The notes beneath the pieces were generated by a model. The model did no database searches. It was not told where the DNA came from and saw only the letters and a program-made list of their open reading frames with translations. The translations under genes were made by a program, and so were the position numbers. Positions 2,680 through 64,000 of a stretch of 64,000 nt of DNA are shown one piece after another. Source of the stretch: a virus (Duplodnaviria > Caudoviricetes); IMG/VR virus record IMGVR_UViG_3300020036_001753, positions 1 through 64,000 of that record. The stretch is one strand, 5' to 3'. Positions within the stretch are counted from its first letter, which is position 1, and every line of letters begins with the position of its first letter.

Positions 2680-4737
2680 ATGCAAGAGTTAATAAGAGAG
2701 GTAATTTCTCACGATTTATTAGAAAGATACATTAATGAATGGCTTAGTATAGTAAATACTACTCATAATTGGAAGCGATTACATCAAATCCTTATTAATA
2801 TGAATAATAGTATTGGAGTAGCTATGGGTACTGATACTAGTATTTATGCTAATAATGGTACTTTAACTGCTGCCCGTACTCTTAATGGAGGTGGAAACAA
2901 TCTTACATTTACTGGATTAAATAAATTTTTCCTTACTACTGCTGACAGCGTTTTTTTTACTTCTGGGTTAGATGTAACTACAGTTGCTGATGGAACTATT
3001 ATTTTAGAAGCACCTGTTATAAGACTTCTTCCTAATAGTGCAACTGGCGATCCTGCCGATGTTTGGACTAACGATGGTAATGGTAATGGAAGTTGGGCAC
3101 CAAGTAGTGGTGGAGGTCCTGGAGTTAATATTTATAATGGCAACGGTGTATTAACTTCTAATAGAACATTAGATGGAGATACTTACGAGTTATTATTTAC
3201 AAACTTAGCTAAGTTTACGCTTGATAATACTACTGAAGTTGTTGTAGATAGTCCTACTACTTCTTTTAATTCTACGGATTTTACGCTAACTGCAACTAAT
3301 CCTTATCTAGTTACTAGTTCTACAGCAGCTTCTTTAGAAGGAAGTCCTCTTTTGGCATTAGCTCCTGGAACAGGCAAGTTTGGTTTTGCTGCTTATGCGT
3401 TTCCTCCTACTTTGTCTATTGCCGATGATGGTAAAGTACTTCAATATGATCATGGTACTACTTCTTTTGTAATGGCTTCTGCCGGTGTTGATACTAATAT
3501 CTATACTACTAATGGTACGTTAACAGGAGCGAGAGTATTAACAGGAGCAACAAACCCACTTACTTTTACTGGATTAAGTACATTTACACTTAGTGCAGGA
3601 GCGTTATCTATTACTGCACTTACTGGAGCTACTACTTTTACTTCAGCAAGTACCTTTACTATTAATTCTTCACTTGATTTAACACTGAATGTAACTGGTG
3701 ACATTACTGTTACACAAGCACTAAATCATGATACTGCGCCTGATTCTATTGTAGCATTAACTGGTACGGGTACTGGTACTTTGTCTTATATTACTCCTGC
3801 CGAATTACTTACTGCAACTGGTGCTGTTACTAATAATATTTATGCTGGTAATGGTACATTAGCTTCCAATAGGACTGTAAGCGGCGGCGGATTGTACAGT
3901 ATAGCATTTAATAATACAACTGCTTCGACTTTTACAAGTAATGGTTTAACAACAATTGGTAGTATTGTTGAAATAGATCTATTGTCTCCCATTGTTGATA
4001 TTCAAACAGGAGCTTTAGGAGCAAGATTTACTTCAAGTGCTGTACAACTAAGACTTGGAAATCATTTTTCATCTCCTGCTGGTACATTAGTACAAGCTAC
4101 AGTTACCAATACAGGAGAAGTTAATTTTACTCCTTTTAAGTTTCCAACTTCTTTAGGAGCTGGTGATACTGGTAAAACTTTAATGTACGATCATGGTACT
4201 GGAACTTTTACAATGGGAACTGGTAGTAACTTTGCTACTGCCGATTTAAGTTTTACTGGTAATAGAACCCACGATCTTGATGGCTTTGATTTAATTATAC
4301 AGGATACTGTATCTGATAGTGCTGTTAGCTTTATTATGAATAGTGGGGACTTTTTAGTAACTGGTAACGGTATGAACATGGGTTTAAATAACTCAAATGG
4401 AGAAATGGCTTATATGCTATCTCATAACGTTTCTAATAAAAAAGAAGTAGTTAGAGCAGGGCAGATAGGAGGATTACCTGGAGGACTTACTAGAGGTGTT
4501 GAACTAGGATCATTTAGCGATGTAACTTCTCCCAATTTACCTGATGGAGGTACAGCATACTATGCTATGCGTTTTCATGAACAAGGAATAGAAATATATA
4601 GTGCTATTAGTGGAGATTCTATGAAGCTAAATATAGCTAAAGTTCCTAATTATGCAGACAATGCTGCTGCTTTATTCGCTGGATTAGTTGTAGGAGATGT
4701 TTATAGGACAGCCGGTGCATTAAAAATTGTTGTTTAA
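2680..4737 (+). CDS. tail fibre protein with internal repeats
   Basis: Five [NS]IYxxNGTLxxxRTLxG-like repeats and two FPxxLxxxDxGKxLxYDHGT repeats. C-terminus VPNYADNAAA..GL..GDVYRTAGALKIVV is typical of Bacteroidota phage fibres. Confidence 0.75.
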   Translation: MQELIREVISHDLLERYINEWLSIVNTTHNWKRLHQILINMNNSIGVAMGTDTSIYANNGTLTAARTLNGGGNNLTFTGLNKFFLTTADSVFFTSGLDVTTVADGTIILEAPVIRLLPNSATGDPADVWTNDGNGNGSWAPSSGGGPGVNIYNGNGVLTSNRTLDGDTYELLFTNLAKFTLDNTTEVVVDSPTTSFNSTDFTLTATNPYLVTSSTAASLEGSPLLALAPGTGKFGFAAYAFPPTLSIADDGKVLQYDHGTTSFVMASAGVDTNIYTTNGTLTGARVLTGATNPLTFTGLSTFTLSAGALSITALTGATTFTSASTFTINSSLDLTLNVTGDITVTQALNHDTAPDSIVALTGTGTGTLSYITPAELLTATGAVTNNIYAGNGTLASNRTVSGGGLYSIAFNNTTASTFTSNGLTTIGSIVEIDLLSPIVDIQTGALGARFTSSAVQLRLGNHFSSPAGTLVQATVTNTGEVNFTPFKFPTSLGAGDTGKTLMYDHGTGTFTMGTGSNFATADLSFTGNRTHDLDGFDLIIQDTVSDSAVSFIMNSGDFLVTGNGMNMGLNNSNGEMAYMLSHNVSNKKEVVRAGQIGGLPGGLTRGVELGSFSDVTSPNLPDGGTAYYAMRFHEQGIEIYSAISGDSMKLNIAKVPNYADNAAALFAGLVVGDVYRTAGALKIVV
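2839..4290 (+). repeat. degenerate protein-level repeats in tail fibre 2
   Basis: SIYANNGTLTAARTLNG, NIYNGNGVLTSNRTLDG, NIYTTNGTLTGARVLTG, NIYAGNGTLASNRTVSG and a degenerate NFATADLSFTGNRTHDLDG. Confidence 0.8.
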
Positions 4738-4767
4738 ATTATATCATAAAATCAAACAAAGTTTATT

Positions 4768-5097
4768 ATGTCAAACAGTAAAAATGTTGCACAAAACACA
4801 GCAGCAACCGAACAAGTACAAGCGCATCTTGAGTTTATTGGTAAAGAAGTTACTCCGGAAGGAATGTATTTACTTTACAATAGAATTTACAGTAATGGTG
4901 CGATAGATCGTTGTAGTAGCCAATTGTTTAAAACTCCGGTTGAATTTGAGGATTATGTTAAAAATATTACTACTCAAATGACGGATTTTAGAAAGAAACT
5001 TACTGCCGATTTTAAAGTTATCGAAGACAATTATCTTAAAAACTCTGATATAGTTTCGGCTAATATCAGAAAACTCACCGAAATTTTAAATGAATAA
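4768..5097 (+). CDS. hypothetical protein (tail module)
   Basis: 109-aa ORF co-oriented between fibre and ring genes, overlapping the next ORF. Confidence 0.7.
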   Translation: MSNSKNVAQNTAATEQVQAHLEFIGKEVTPEGMYLLYNRIYSNGAIDRCSSQLFKTPVEFEDYVKNITTQMTDFRKKLTADFKVIEDNYLKNSDIVSANIRKLTEILNE

Positions 5098-5752
5098 ACT
5101 TCTGACATTAGACCAAGCTGCCGATTATATTGCTTCTCGACTTAATCTTAAGTTAGATGTTATCGCTAAGCGTGAGTTAAAGTTTGGTATATTACAATGG
5201 AGATCAACTATTATTAGACGTGATTACGAACGTAATGGGGCTAGTCCTCATTACGTTCAAACGTTTATTACTGGTTTGGAAGTAGTTGATATTATGGATA
5301 ATTGTGCTATTGAATTTGGTTGTCCGGTATTGAGAACTACTACTAAAGTTCCTGTTCCTATAAGAACCAAGAATCATCCTTTTATGTATGTTGGTACTGC
5401 TGATTTTACGTTACCTTTTGGGTATAGTATTCCGGAAGTAATTAGCTTAACTAGTGCTGACAAATTTACTGCTGAAACTATCAAATATACTTACAGGGAT
5501 GGTTATATTTACGTCTTTAATAACTTACTTTTAGAATACGTTGGTATTAGGTCTGCCTTTGAAAATCCAGAAGAAGTTGTTACACTTTGTACAGATGCTT
5601 CTTGTTTTGATGTAGATGCAAAGTTTCCTTTGCCACTTGATATGCTCGAAGCCATCTATACTGGACTTTTACAAAAAGAATGGTCTTTACCTTCTCTAAC
5701 TGATAACGAAATCAAAATTGATAGTAACGCAAATAGGAATAACCAATTATGA
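5090..5752 (+). CDS. crAss-like tail ring/adaptor protein
   Basis: Position in the tail module. Ends KFTA...YTYRDGYIYVFN...IRSAFENPEEV...FPLPLDML, as in crAss-like ring proteins. Confidence 0.55.
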   Translation: MNKLLTLDQAADYIASRLNLKLDVIAKRELKFGILQWRSTIIRRDYERNGASPHYVQTFITGLEVVDIMDNCAIEFGCPVLRTTTKVPVPIRTKNHPFMYVGTADFTLPFGYSIPEVISLTSADKFTAETIKYTYRDGYIYVFNNLLLEYVGIRSAFENPEEVVTLCTDASCFDVDAKFPLPLDMLEAIYTGLLQKEWSLPSLTDNEIKIDSNANRNNQL

Positions 5753-6540
5753 AAGGAATAGTTTACGACTTTTATTGTTTCTTAACTAATAACTTACTTA
5801 AGGAACATACACAAAGAAAGATAGATTTTTCTAAATCAAGAGATTACTATTTAGAAAGATTGAAAGCTTATCCAATGATACTTGCGTTACTAAAATTTAC
5901 TGCTGAAGAACTTTATGAAAAATTTAATCAAATTCCTGAAATAGAAAAAGCTATTGGCAATGTTTCTATATTAAATAACAGAAATTATAATACAGTTGTT
6001 CCTATCTTGGAACAGCTGTATTTGCTTAAGGATAAGCTTCGTAATACTGAAAAACAAATAACTAAGCTAACTAAGTCGCAAATAGATAGTGCTACTTTCA
6101 ATAAAATCCTAAAAACTTATAATCAAATTTGCATTAATGCAGTTATTGAGGATAATTATCATCTTACTATTCCGTATCTTGGAAGAATATATATTATCCG
6201 TAAGACTGTAGCTTTGCGAAGGACTAAGACAGGAGAAATGATGGGGTCTATAAATTGGGATGCTAGCAACAAAGCTAAGAAAGCTTTGCTAGATAAAGGC
6301 TTGACTCCTTATAATAAAGAAACTGCTCCAGATGGAGAAAAATGGTTAGTATATAATACCGGTACAGAAAACTGCTGGTTTATGTGGGACAATAATAAAT
6401 GTACTACTGCTAACTATAAGGCTTACACATTTAGACCTAATGTAGGAGATAGTGATGCTTGTATTGTTAAAAAGCTACAAACTTATCGTAAAGAAAATCC
6501 TATTGGTCAACTTAAATATAAAGTAATAGCTAATGGATAA
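5749..6540 (+). CDS. crAss-like IHF/HU-related protein
   Basis: LTIPYLGRIYIIRK arm-like motif followed by INWxxS..WLVY..WFMW..YTFRP. Crassvirales carry IHF-like genes at this position. Confidence 0.5.
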   Translation: MKGIVYDFYCFLTNNLLKEHTQRKIDFSKSRDYYLERLKAYPMILALLKFTAEELYEKFNQIPEIEKAIGNVSILNNRNYNTVVPILEQLYLLKDKLRNTEKQITKLTKSQIDSATFNKILKTYNQICINAVIEDNYHLTIPYLGRIYIIRKTVALRRTKTGEMMGSINWDASNKAKKALLDKGLTPYNKETAPDGEKWLVYNTGTENCWFMWDNNKCTTANYKAYTFRPNVGDSDACIVKKLQTYRKENPIGQLKYKVIANG

Positions 6541-36874: not shown

Positions 36875-36891
36875 AGTTGTAAGAATTTAAT

Positions 36892-36922
36892 AAGGGATGC
36901 AGCAGTATTTGCTACATCCCTT
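36892..36922 (-). terminator. terminator-like hairpin
   Basis: Minus strand gggatgtagca-aatac-tgctgcatccc. The only non-Watson-Crick pair is G-U on the - strand. Confidence 0.6.
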
Positions 36923-36927
36923 TATTA

Positions 36928-47636: not shown

Positions 47637-47652
47637 AAGATTATATATAATT

Positions 47653-47689
47653 AAAAAAGCCCTGCCACTAATAAAAAGGGCAAGGCTTT
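47653..47689 (-). terminator. intrinsic terminator
   Basis: Minus strand aaagccttgcc...ggcagggcttt followed by TTT, with one G-U pair. Confidence 0.65.
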
Positions 47690-47709
47690 GTACAAAAGAG
47701 AAATGTAAA

Positions 47710-48489: not shown

Positions 48490-48515
48490 ATTATTGTTAT
48501 TATTGATGATAAATG

Positions 48516-48553
48516 AAAAAGTAATGGCTACCCCAAATTAATGGGGTAGCCAT
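48516..48553 (-). terminator. intrinsic terminator
   Basis: Perfect 12-bp stem atggctacccca-aattaa-tggggtagccat with a downstream T run on the - strand. Confidence 0.75.
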
Positions 48554-48567
48554 CAGAGACCGGCAAA

Positions 48568-55829: not shown

Positions 55830-55840
55830 AGTAAGATATT

Positions 55841-55871
55841 AAAAAGGGATGCCACTTTATAGTGGCATCCC
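55841..55871 (-). terminator. intrinsic terminator
   Basis: Perfect 11-bp stem gggatgccact-ttat-agtggcatccc, followed by TTTTT on the - strand. Confidence 0.8.
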
Positions 55872-55900
55872 CTATATTAAACAAACATGAAATGGAAACA

Positions 55901-61169: not shown

Positions 61170-61724
61170 TTATTTTAATTGATTATACAATTGTTTCCAC
61201 TCTGCGATTTTATTCGATCTTGCATCAGGTTCGTCAGATGTAAATAAAGCTAAATGCGGAAGATGCGCAGCTCCTATTGGAATATCTATTACCTTTTTTA
61301 CATTAAACCGTTCTTCAATTAATCCATGCATCATGTATAGCTGCCTTTCTGCATCATAGATTTCTCCTGACCTTAAACTATTAATAGCGTATTCAAAACG
61401 AGAAATAACATCTAATTCTTTATCTACGCTTGTTAATATATGCAATCCATGAGTACCTATATTACGAAAAAATGAAGTAGGATTGTCTTGTAATAAGCTA
61501 GTTTCAAAATCTTCCTTATCTATATCCAAAAGATTTAATAAAGCGTTAGTTGCAGCACATCCAATACATTGTCGAGTTTCGTCTATAGCTAGGTAATATT
61601 TAAGATTTTCCTTAATCTTAGGCTTTTGCAAGCCTATAAGCATCCAGTAAATCAGTTGCTTAAGAGTTCTTATACTCCGTAGCTTTTTGATCAATTTAGT
61701 TTGTGGTAACTTCTGCATTGTCAA
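61170..61724 (-). CDS. CxGCAATN-family paralog (4th of 4 in transcription order)
   Basis: CIGCAATN, FEYAINSLR, MMH and WKQLYNQL. Confidence 0.8.
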   Translation of the reverse strand: MTMQKLPQTKLIKKLRSIRTLKQLIYWMLIGLQKPKIKENLKYYLAIDETRQCIGCAATNALLNLLDIDKEDFETSLLQDNPTSFFRNIGTHGLHILTSVDKELDVISRFEYAINSLRSGEIYDAERQLYMMHGLIEERFNVKKVIDIPIGAAHLPHLALFTSDEPDARSNKIAEWKQLYNQLK

Positions 61725-62304
61725 ATTTGATTAAATCGTTATATAATTTTTTCCAATTCTCAATCGCTTGCTGTTTGTAATAGTAGTCAGTAGTATCAGC
61801 ATCTACACCATAGAAACTAAGAGGTTCGTATCCGAGAAAATGTACGTGATCTGGCATATAGCTTTCTTCTGAAAATGTAGACTTTATAGCAAAGTGTTTA
61901 TCAATTATTTCGTGCATTTCTTTTAAATAAATAAAAGCTATTTGCCATTGTGTAGAACGTAAAGAATCTATACAAAGCTCAAACTTACTTATAGCCTTAC
62001 TAGTAGCTAAATCGTATCCAAGAACATGAGTAAATTGATATATAGTATTTCCTATAGTATCTAAATCTGCTCTACATTTCATAACTCGGTTAGTAAACTT
62101 CTTTTTACTTGTCTCTGTAATTGCTAGCATAGCATTAGTAGCGGCACAACCATAGCATTCATCTCTTTGAATACTAAAGAATGTTGCAAATTCTAAGTTA
62201 ATCGTAGGGTTATTAATTCCCTGAAGCATCCAATAAATCAGATGCTGCAACTTAGTTATAGCTGCAAGCTTTTTGATAAGCTTATTTGGTCTTTTCTTTT
62301 TCAT
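61696..62304 (-). CDS. CxGCAATN-family paralog (3rd of 4)
   Basis: CYGCAATN, FELCIDSLR, EMH and WKKLYNDL. Confidence 0.8.
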   Translation of the reverse strand: MKKKRPNKLIKKLAAITKLQHLIYWMLQGINNPTINLEFATFFSIQRDECYGCAATNAMLAITETSKKKFTNRVMKCRADLDTIGNTIYQFTHVLGYDLATSKAISKFELCIDSLRSTQWQIAFIYLKEMHEIIDKHFAIKSTFSEESYMPDHVHFLGYEPLSFYGVDADTTDYYYKQQAIENWKKLYNDLIKFDNAEVTTN

Positions 62305-62836
62305 CTGTTTGATTATTGTAAAGTGAATTGTAAATATTTTGCCATTTCTCTATTATAGCTGAATCAGCTGAGCCTAACCAAAGGTCTTGTTCAGCAAACT
62401 TATCAATTTCAGCTTGGCTATCTGCGATTAGCTTTAATGGTAAACCATATATATTTGCTATGCTATTGTGCATACATTGTAAATACATTAAGGCGCTCTC
62501 ATATCTAGTAGCTATTAAAGAATCAATTGCAACTTCAAATCTATCTACTATTGTAAAACTAGATTCGATGGCTGTAGCAATCATTAAGGTTTCTTCATAA
62601 CTAGGAACTCTTCTTGACGCATTTACTAAATTAGTAAATTGCTCTTTGTTACATAAATGTAATAGAGCGTTAGTCGCAGCGCAGCCAACACATTCGCCAT
62701 TTATATTAGCTAGAAAAGTGCGCATCTTAACTTTAATCTTAGGCTTTGTTAAACCAAGAAGCATAATGGCAACCATAGCCTGAAAGCTATCTATTTTGTA
62801 TAGCTTCCTAATTAACATTGGAACTTTCTTTTTCAT
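62282..62836 (-). CDS. CxGCAATN-family paralog (2nd of 4)
   Basis: CVGCAATN, FEVAIDSL, CMH and WQNIYNSL. Confidence 0.8.
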   Translation of the reverse strand: MKKKVPMLIRKLYKIDSFQAMVAIMLLGLTKPKIKVKMRTFLANINGECVGCAATNALLHLCNKEQFTNLVNASRRVPSYEETLMIATAIESSFTIVDRFEVAIDSLIATRYESALMYLQCMHNSIANIYGLPLKLIADSQAEIDKFAEQDLWLGSADSAIIEKWQNIYNSLYNNQTDEKEKTK

Positions 62837-62839
62837 TGC

Positions 62840-63382
62840 TTATTTATTTAATTGTTTTAATTGTTTACTTAAAGCTTTCCAAGCGTGAATACGACTCTCG
62901 TAATTAGCTGTACTTAAATGGTAGTAATCATTCGATAACTTATCTAAAATATCATCGGAAACAGTTATTCTTTTCAATTTGACTTTCCTAGTTTCATAAA
63001 CATTGATAATCTCTTGATGCATATGAAATAGATAAGCCGAACTTTGAGAAAAATCCCCTATCCTAAGCGCATTGACGGCGTATTCAAAATACGTTATGAC
63101 TTTAGTATTTGCATCTACAACTGAAGCTAGATGATGGAAGTCATCAGTTCCACTTATATTACGCATATATGAATTAACTTCTTCTTTGGTATAATCAGTT
63201 AATTCAAAAAGAGTATTAGTTGCAGCACATCCAACACACATATTGTCATAAAAGGCGCAGTAAACTCCCATATCTACAGCTAGCTTTGGGTTTTCTAAAC
63301 CTTTTATCATTATGTCAATAAGCTGTGGTATAGTTCTTATCTTTCGCAACTTTACTATTATCGGCGGTAATGCAGATTTCAT
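62840..63382 (-). CDS. CxGCAATN-family paralog (1st of 4)
   Basis: CVGCAATN, FEYAVNALR, HMH and WKALSKQL. Confidence 0.8.
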   Translation of the reverse strand: MKSALPPIIVKLRKIRTIPQLIDIMIKGLENPKLAVDMGVYCAFYDNMCVGCAATNTLFELTDYTKEEVNSYMRNISGTDDFHHLASVVDANTKVITYFEYAVNALRIGDFSQSSAYLFHMHQEIINVYETRKVKLKRITVSDDILDKLSNDYYHLSTANYESRIHAWKALSKQLKQLNK

Positions 63383-63792
63383 TGCTTAACGTTTTTTACT
63401 TTAATAAAAGATAGATTATTGTCTTCAATAAGCGGTTTTAATGCTTCCGGTATATCTTGTGTACCATAAGCATAGTAAAGATTATCAGTGACTGGAACTC
63501 GTTTCTTCAATTCAGAAACTAATGCTTTAAGATCAGTTATTTCAGCTTTTAAAAGCATTACTTCTTTATCGTGATCTGCAATTGCTATGTCAAGTAGCTT
63601 GTGGGCATCAGTTACTATACTTTGCAGTAGGCGTATCTTAGCTTTAAGACTGGTCATTATTTGCTTCTGTATCTCTTGCTTACGAGCAAATAAGATTCTA
63701 AGATAATCCAGTTTTTTCTCCGCTTCTAATAGCTTGGTGTAAGCTATGTTGAAGTTGTGGATGTACTGGATTAGTAATTTACTTTTTTTCAT
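63379..63792 (-). CDS. coiled-coil hypothetical early protein
   Basis: 137 aa, heptad-rich. First - strand gene after the C-free tract. Confidence 0.65.
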   Translation of the reverse strand: MKKSKLLIQYIHNFNIAYTKLLEAEKKLDYLRILFARKQEIQKQIMTSLKAKIRLLQSIVTDAHKLLDIAIADHDKEVMLLKAEITDLKALVSELKKRVPVTDNLYYAYGTQDIPEALKPLIEDNNLSFIKVKNVKQ

Positions 63793-63947
63793 GATAGAAG
63801 ATTATAGTATTATTAATAATAAAGAAGGTTGGGTTTTGAGAGGGGATAGGGATTGATAAGGATGAGAATAAAATTTGAGGGAAGGGAATTAGAAGATATA
63901 TTAATAATGAGATTGATAGAGTGGAGATTAATTGGAAAATAAGGTGT
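63791..63947. other. 157-nt tract with no C on the + strand (G-free on the - strand)
   Basis: Base-by-base inspection finds no C between C63790 and C63948. The tract contains five G3+ runs. Confidence 0.9.
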
Positions 63948-63989
63948 CGTAGAACCTGGCGCGCAAGCGCCAATCGCTCCACGAACACC
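63943..63989 (+). promoter_or_regulatory. GC-rich nested hairpin with GCAA loop
   Basis: tggcgc-GCAA-gcgcca (63957-63972), enclosed by ggtgt-cgt / acg-a-acacc. Confidence 0.55.
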
Positions 63990-64000
63990 TTTCACCAACT

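Follow-up and report, generated by a model that had tools for sequence, protein, structure and literature searches.

The C-free tract of this phage genome (+ strand, 63791–63947) is the 3′ half of a bipartite, strand-polarised intercistronic element on the mRNA-sense (−) strand. In sense order, the element runs from a G-rich, C-poor arm through a GC hairpin with a U-run to 155 G-free, C-enriched nucleotides and an AUG. The same order, C-free then G-free, was found in eight or more other lineages without sequence similarity. The tract lies in a window of 64,000 nucleotides corresponding to bases 1–64000 of a single 90,846-bp contig; positions above 64000 are genome coordinates, which equal those of L001 plus 60000. 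As the initial annotation had reported, both the sequence and a script showed that C is absent from all 157 nt, with C at 63790 and 63948 on either side. C63790 is the complement of the G in the ATG at 63792..63790, so the run stops exactly at the start codon. The + strand composition of the tract is A65 G46 T46, and that of the − strand, in mRNA sense, is U65 A46 C46 G0. C accounts for 30% of the sense strand in the G-free part, about twice the block mean of 15%. Because C has doubled instead of disappearing, the total GC content is maintained even though the skew is complete.

A run of this length had been judged vanishingly unlikely by chance. This judgment held, although C makes up 15.7% of the genome instead of the 14% assumed at the time: the per-site probability of 157 nt without C is 2.2e-12, and the 90,846-bp genome is expected to contain about 3e-8 runs of such length for any base. 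The runner-up among single-base-free runs in the whole genome is 55 nt, and the tract is the sole case genome-wide of a 100-nt window with at most two of G or C and at least 20 of the other. Five more assemblies, each from another sample (L003 and L096–L099), also carry it, with 0–6 substitutions, which excludes the assembly artefact that the initial annotation had named as a refutation. Candidate coding sequences in the tract were rejected: − strand ORFs of 61 and 69 aa begin within the hairpin and are of low complexity, and a 26-aa + strand ORF read by eye was without support. Rfam 15 covariance models gave no match at E ≤ 1 to genome positions 63000–67500 on either strand.

The genome is organized in two opposing blocks. 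The + strand block starts at 67295, passes the contig end, and continues to 36419; it includes proteins of 1968, 3592, and 1328 aa; the − strand block, which contains the replication genes, extends from 66774 to 36578. The tract lies about 3 kb inside this leftward block, where a gap of 228 nt separates an 82-aa ORF (64269..64021) from a 137-aa ORF (63379..63792, − strand); the tract takes up most of this gap. The 137-aa gene had been taken for the first − strand gene and the tract had been placed near the first-injected end of the genome. Neither assignment survived, as the block begins at about 66774 with six further − strand ORFs upstream of the tract, and the tract is inside the 90.8-kb contig, which has no terminal repeat. 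The 137-aa protein has no family match and is common to a species-level cluster alone; it shares no homology with the genes found 3′ of the element in relatives. Among other lineages, the nearest show 34–37% identity in the helicase. The helicase of this phage (57917–59416), which lies 4.4 kb downstream of the element, is 31% identical to crAssphage helicases, and in relatives a family A DNA polymerase is encoded directly 3′ of the helicase. By sequence, the source genome is a distant crAss-like phage. There were no matches in megablast of 56–64 kb against a phage collection, in tblastn of the 137-aa protein against phages, or in a search of viral contigs with the helicase as a single-protein query. 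PHROGs and Pfam searches with nine or ten flanking proteins returned matches for the helicase alone.

The initial annotation had also regarded the tract as the leader site of the early genes. Promoter-like cassettes were found at 65.4–66.8 kb instead: the 14-mer AAACAACCTACTGA occurs in four exact copies on the − strand (at 66796, 66047, 65619, and 65374, within 65361–66796), each a short distance 3′ of a GC-rich hairpin. No further copy with up to one mismatch was detected genome-wide, nor any with up to three mismatches in the element. These 14-mer-plus-hairpin cassettes are better candidates for early promoters than the tract. The Bacteroidota promoter pattern TTG-N17-23-TAnnTTTG has a single intergenic match, on the + strand at 67243–67273, 22 nt 5′ of the gene that opens the + strand block (67295). 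A host-type promoter of this pattern in or near the tract was considered and rejected, as none is present there.

We then delineated the parts of the element on the sense strand. The G-rich, C-poor 5′ arm (64054–63996, or 3996–4054 in L001) reaches into the window with positions 63996..64000 only and overlaps the final 34 nt of the 82-aa ORF; the sense strand is without C over 64038–63984. The inner hairpin (63948..63995) is terminator-like, with a GGCGC-UUGC-GCGCC core inside a second stem, a predicted energy of −21 kcal/mol, and UUAUUUU directly 3′ of it. It was absent from the output of a terminator consensus scan because its stem is bulged. Among six related elements whose sequences were read by eye, the U-run is present in just two. 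The G-free half starts with the 3′ arm of a long imperfect hairpin (63876..63947), which is predicted to pair with the G-rich arm. It continues into a C-rich core (63828..63890; 25 C in 63 nt, with CCC and CCCC runs) that is mostly unpaired in the predicted fold, except that 15 nt of the core (63876–63890) overlap the 3′ arm and include its outermost paired bases. The last segment (63793..63827) is the AT-rich, G-free translation-initiation region of the 137-aa gene, with a composition like that of other starts in this genome.

In the predicted fold, the first ~72 G-free nucleotides pair with the G-rich arm to form a 179-nt hairpin of −64.8 kcal/mol. Arm-wise shuffles had a mean of −49.8 kcal/mol (z = −3.75), and none was equally stable in two runs of 300 and 200. 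The prediction leaves the distal ~83 nt single-stranded. The description of the tract as a G-less leader was borne out, in that it is non-coding, has the same sense strand as the genes on either side, and runs into a start codon; its description as unstructured applies to the distal ~83 nt and fails for the first ~72 nt. Two further structural candidates were rejected: a riboswitch-like alternative pairing between the G-rich arm and the distal tail was not significant, and strand-specific folding was not seen, as sense and antisense energies were without bias overall.

Comparison of six strains indicates that the element is under purifying selection. Variable columns make up 19% of the 82-aa gene and 10% of the 137-aa gene, versus 3.7% of the 5′ arm plus hairpin and 4.5% of the G-free tract. 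A 99-nt stretch (64037–63939) is invariant in all six, as is the inner hairpin at 63948..63995. None of the seven substitutions in the tract creates a G; strain L099 has a CG insertion at −3, indicating that G is tolerated at that position. As a separate observation, the gene 3′ of the 137-aa gene (62840–63382) barely aligns across the strain loci L096–L099, with 55% variable columns, and its neighbors are 90% or more conserved in the same loci. This pattern suggests cassette swapping within a four-paralogue array (61170–63382).

Scanning of the full genome and of relatives, as proposed in the initial annotation, yielded a single tract here and polarised counterparts in many crAss-like relatives. 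We examined the early regions of relatives on the helicase-sense strand. In L009, a C-free run (2007–2098) is followed by G-free runs at 2104–2190 and 2220–2302 and an ATG at 2301, and the C-free arm invades the upstream coding sequence, where 25 codons are without C. In L004, C-free 5842–5894 precedes G-free 5906–5999 and an ATG at 6011. L089 has a C-free run at 2644–2742, a G-free run at 2751–2932, and an ATG at 2931; at a second site, a stand-alone 83-nt G-free run (3560–3642) without a C-free partner leads to an ATG at 3641. In L090 and L091, a G-rich segment is followed by G-poor leaders reaching the ATG. As in the source genome, the G-free run ends at the G of the ATG in L009 (2220–2302) and at both L089 sites (2751–2932 and 3560–3642); in L004, L090, and L091, the sequence is G-free or G-poor up to 0–11 nt from the ATG. 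The same order was found in named phages. In cr127_1, positions 2956–3576 of NC_055886 hold 224 nt with one C followed by 397 nt with one G, in which the longest G-free run is 327 nt. In prototype crAssphage, whose copy lies at 1714–2373 of BK010471, the gp04–gp05 gap has a 204-nt segment containing 78 G and 3 C, then a G-free run at 1981–2050 and G-poor sequence up to gp05. In cr3_1, C-free 1969–2026 precedes G-free 2030–2096, and in cr11_1, a G-rich segment (4451–4700) precedes a G-poor one (4701–5050).

Across 1.5 Mb of fetched loci, the C-free-to-G-free order occurred 11 times, seven of them in crAss-like early regions, and the reverse order once. About 70 unrelated helicase loci gave tandem repeats or giant-virus cases only. 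The element is absent from lineage L007, and the first 12 kb of phi14:2 have no significant base-free run. A 168-nt G-free run in L075, tried as an analogue, was rejected as a plain 9-mer tandem repeat. The genes 3′ of the element are non-homologous between lineages. A search of seven G-free leaders for a common motif found nothing above shuffled controls, composition alone being common to them, and we therefore dropped the candidates noticed by eye (a boxA-like CUCUUU, AUCUCCAC, CUCC, and a DnaA-like TTATCAATC). Complementarity between the arms moderately exceeds that expected from composition in the near clade (z from −1.6 to −3.75); there is no excess in crAssphage or cr127_1 (z about −0.2), where low-complexity arms pair anyway. 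Two of these loci have other features of their own. In L090, an 850-nt gene-free gap contains about six GCGCAGC-containing words (5650–6030) and words like ACCTACTAAG, which resemble the 14-mer of the source phage; this gap may represent a structured RNA made early or an array of promoters. In L089, ten copies of the 12-mer TTAAAATAATAG form the contig end upstream of the early genes and pass into further sequence without C, the whole covering positions 1–365; this region could represent a terminus of the genome or another polarised element.

What the element does is a matter of weighing several readings. We tentatively favor the one in which the tract would be a structure-free, start-codon-free leader for Shine-Dalgarno-independent translation, with an insulating hairpin upstream. 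We infer that the tract is transcribed as such a leader and affects translation. G alone pairs with both C and U and is present in every usual start codon (AUG, GUG, and UUG), so a G-free spacer would offer neither stable structure nor a false start. In the proposed mechanism, leftward transcription would pass the stop of the 82-aa ORF and then produce the G-rich arm, the GC hairpin with its U-run, 155 G-free C/U-rich nucleotides, and the AUG. The ~180-nt hairpin might insulate, partly terminate, or stabilize the upstream message. The last ~83 bases, unable to fold, would serve as a bare landing strip presenting the AUG to ribosomes of a Bacteroidota-type host that initiate without Shine-Dalgarno, and the gene served would be the first after the small early genes.

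Start regions across the genome are consistent with the leader reading. The mean base-free run before an ATG is 12.5 nt for G versus 5.3 nt for C; G amounts to 2–10% at −24..−4, and A to 46–59% at −15..−10. Such G-depleted, A-rich starts fit a host without Shine-Dalgarno use, and the tract is the extreme of this genome-wide trend. A hairpin and a U-run followed by a 24–40-nt G-free start region make up many of the intercistronic gaps in this genome, and the element is a larger, polarised form of this unit. Example gaps within 36578–60295 are 55830–55900, 48490–48567, 47637–47709, and 36875–36927. Hairpins of this kind, 24–40 nt before the ATG, are too close for a promoter and look like intercistronic attenuators or stabilizers, not operon ends. 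The tract itself is G-poor, predicted to be unstructured next to the start codon, and directly 5′ of it; intergenic NUG triplets are confined to 64008–63966, with none from 63965 to the ATG. That the leaders of the different lineages are alike in composition and not in motif fits a structural or compositional function. The exact stop of the G-free run at the ATG here and in L009 and L089, the low strain variation of the element, and the lack of G-creating substitutions also speak for a leader, as do the precedents for G-poor leaders given below.

Several observations argue against a leader. The downstream genes are non-homologous and the element is single in a complete genome, which points to a positional rather than a gene-specific role, and the element does not precede obviously high-expression genes. 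The G-free runs of 182–327 nt in L089 and cr127_1 far exceed the requirements of a ribosome. Pairing alone would not demand so pure a C-free 5′ arm, which also invades coding sequence. The equal sense and antisense energies do not favor an RNA-specific structure, and G is tolerated at −3 in L099. The run up to the ATG could also arise where a C-rich element simply adjoins a normal G-poor start region.

We consider it rather unlikely that the element works at the DNA level, as a replication origin or as a loading zone for an ejected virion RNA polymerase or a 5′–3′ helicase. Under reverse complement the element is symmetric: on either side of the central GC hairpin, the strand running outward 5′–3′ is G-free, pyrimidine-rich, and unfoldable. 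Once the duplex opened or a cruciform extruded, these strands could be tracks for single-strand-binding protein, a 5′–3′ helicase, or a polymerase. Such a role is consistent with the 11:1 polarity and needs no excess complementarity in crAssphage or cr127_1. It is also consistent with the absence of strand bias in fold energy, with a C-free arm that overrides coding sequence, and with conservation above that of the flanking genes. As expected of an origin, the element is the single extreme-skew site in the 90.8-kb genome, non-coding and 5′ of the replication genes. Against this, no DnaA box with up to one mismatch was found in 63–68 kb, there are no clear iterons, the only repeat being one weak 21-nt pair with 76% identity, and the local skew (G-rich, then C-rich) is opposite to that of a skew-defined origin. 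The second L089 site, a G-free leader without a C-free partner that ends at an ATG, is best read as an RNA feature, and the hairpin-plus-14-mer cassettes, which are better early-promoter candidates, are absent from the element. In favor of a DNA-level role, single-stranded DNA is a good template and double-stranded DNA a poor one for gp66, the virion RNA polymerase of crAss-like phage, and its early promoters have no common motif (10.1101/2020.03.07.982082). In a further form of this reading, which we hold unlikely, Crassvirales early regions share an undescribed, composition-defined cis-element, made up of a C-free, purine-rich arm, a GC hairpin, and a G-free, pyrimidine-rich arm, that is the entry point for a motif-less virion RNA polymerase, an origin, or both. 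In prototype crAssphage (Carjivirus communis), the second predicted origin is placed some 2.6 kb along the forward strand (PMC10983915). This site is probably the gp04–gp05 gap that holds the crAssphage copy of the element, where a G-rich stretch likewise precedes a G-free, C-rich one. The published call is an Ori-Finder prediction with coverage support, and the paper does not describe a polarised element (PMC10983915); because the call rests on composition, it is not independent evidence.

A Rho loading (rut) site, acting as a conditional terminator or attenuator at the boundary between early and middle genes with the G-rich arm masking part of it, is an unlikely alternative in our estimate. 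RNA of this make-up would be an ideal track for the host Rho hexamer to bind. Entry into the replication module would then need antitermination, translation, or a Rho-insensitive phage polymerase. A Rho site would explain why composition alone is recognized, why the element lies at a boundary, and why the tract has to be untranslated. The 155 nt have zero G, 30% C, and 40 YC dinucleotides, as expected of a C-rich, G-poor stretch of at least ~80 nt; no credible ORF runs through them, and their distal ~83 nt are unpaired by prediction. The composition is kept across lineages and the sequence is not, a hallmark of rut sites, and there is one element per genome, between small early genes and replication genes. 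The layout parallels lambda cro-nutR-tR1-cII, in which a small-gene stop, a hairpin, and C-rich, G-poor RNA precede the next ATG. However, the unpaired tails of several relatives have a modest C content (22–29%, versus about 20% expected from mere G removal), Rho termination would land within the downstream gene, the total exclusion of G surpasses known rut sites, and the sole host-type promoter found is on the opposite strand. We regard as very improbable a restriction-site-free zone, a G-quadruplex element, or a packaging signal. The five + strand G3+ runs of the initial annotation were all located (63831–33, 63842–45, 63849–51, 63879–81, and 63884–86), but the tract has no G-quadruplex motif with loops of 1–7 or even 1–12 nt, and C-free arms of relatives (e.g., L004 2829–3089) are without G-runs. 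Restriction sites with G and C on one strand are trivially impossible in the tract, and GATC, GGCC, CCGG, TCGA, ACGT, and GANTC have zero occurrences in 63701–64100; site avoidance nevertheless fails to explain why this spot alone is affected, as a 157-nt site-free stretch protects nothing while its flanks carry sites. Packaging is at odds with a tract that is away from the end of a contig lacking a terminal repeat. The AT-rich background is the sole point in favor of chance, an assembly artefact, or a mutational footprint of strand-specific deamination; given the minute expectation, six independent assemblies, the doubling of C, and the recurrence in other lineages, these have a negligible probability.

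Several known systems resemble the element in part. Start regions of Bacteroidota are reportedly Shine-Dalgarno-less, A-rich, G-poor, and unstructured, as Baez and colleagues are said to have described in 2019. The last ~35 nt of the tract are like any other start region of this genome, whereas ordinary G-free stretches span 20–40 nt and the tract has 155 nt, a C-rich middle, and a coupled G-rich arm. Known rut sites, such as lambda tR1 between cro and cII, likewise consist of C-rich, G-poor untranslated RNA beside a hairpin, are recognized by composition, and separate an early gene from those of the next temporal class. They tolerate some G and span about 80 nt, whereas here G is excluded for 90–327 nt and a C-free arm is present upstream. 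The omega leader of TMV is G-poor and CA-rich and acts without Shine-Dalgarno. C-rich ribosome-binding sites that work without Shine-Dalgarno have been selected in vitro (PMC3310771), and ACA or C-A-rich sequences are translational enhancers (PMC3879156). These leaders also lack G and are unfoldable, and, like omega, L009 and L090 have CA-rich tails; the known leaders are 20–70 nt long and have been tested, whereas the element is two to five times longer, bipartite, and known from sequence. Phage N4 virion RNA polymerase uses hairpin promoters (PMC4496689). Like those promoters, the element has a GC-rich hairpin, and it too is located in an early region, that of a phage injecting a giant RNA polymerase; but N4 promoters are short, conserved, and repeated, and the hairpin here is unique in the genome, where the only repeated early signal is AAACAACCTACTGA. 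The Cellulophaga crAss-like phage phi14:2 produces abundant early non-coding intergenic RNAs in the sense direction (10.1101/2020.03.07.982082). Both cases involve non-coding stretches in a crAss-like early region; unlike the first 12 kb of phi14:2, which have no significant base-free run, the source phage has a compact element of 228 nt. We found no published description of a polarised C-free/G-free element in the literature.

The odd tract thus belongs to a recurring architecture that can be recognized from composition alone in crAssphage, cr127_1, cr3_1, cr11_1, and several uncultured lineages. Its polarity there is constant, its place is always the early region, and it is under purifying selection. 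crAss-like phages are the commonest viruses of the human gut, and the element offers a short, concrete piece of DNA or RNA for three questions: where replication starts, how the polymerase finds the early genes, and how translation proceeds without Shine-Dalgarno. It also bears on annotation, as small reverse-strand ORFs called in such tracts are probably spurious. In cr127_1 (NC_055886, L092), four GenBank reverse-strand CDSs of 29–37 aa (gp04–gp07) lie in or just past the 327-nt tract (3228–3740), and are probably artefacts of the purine-rich opposite strand. In cr3_1 (NC_055874 reverse complement, L094), an apparently unannotated ORF encoding a hydrophobic protein of 48 aa (2294–2440) was seen by eye directly 3′ of the G-poor leader.
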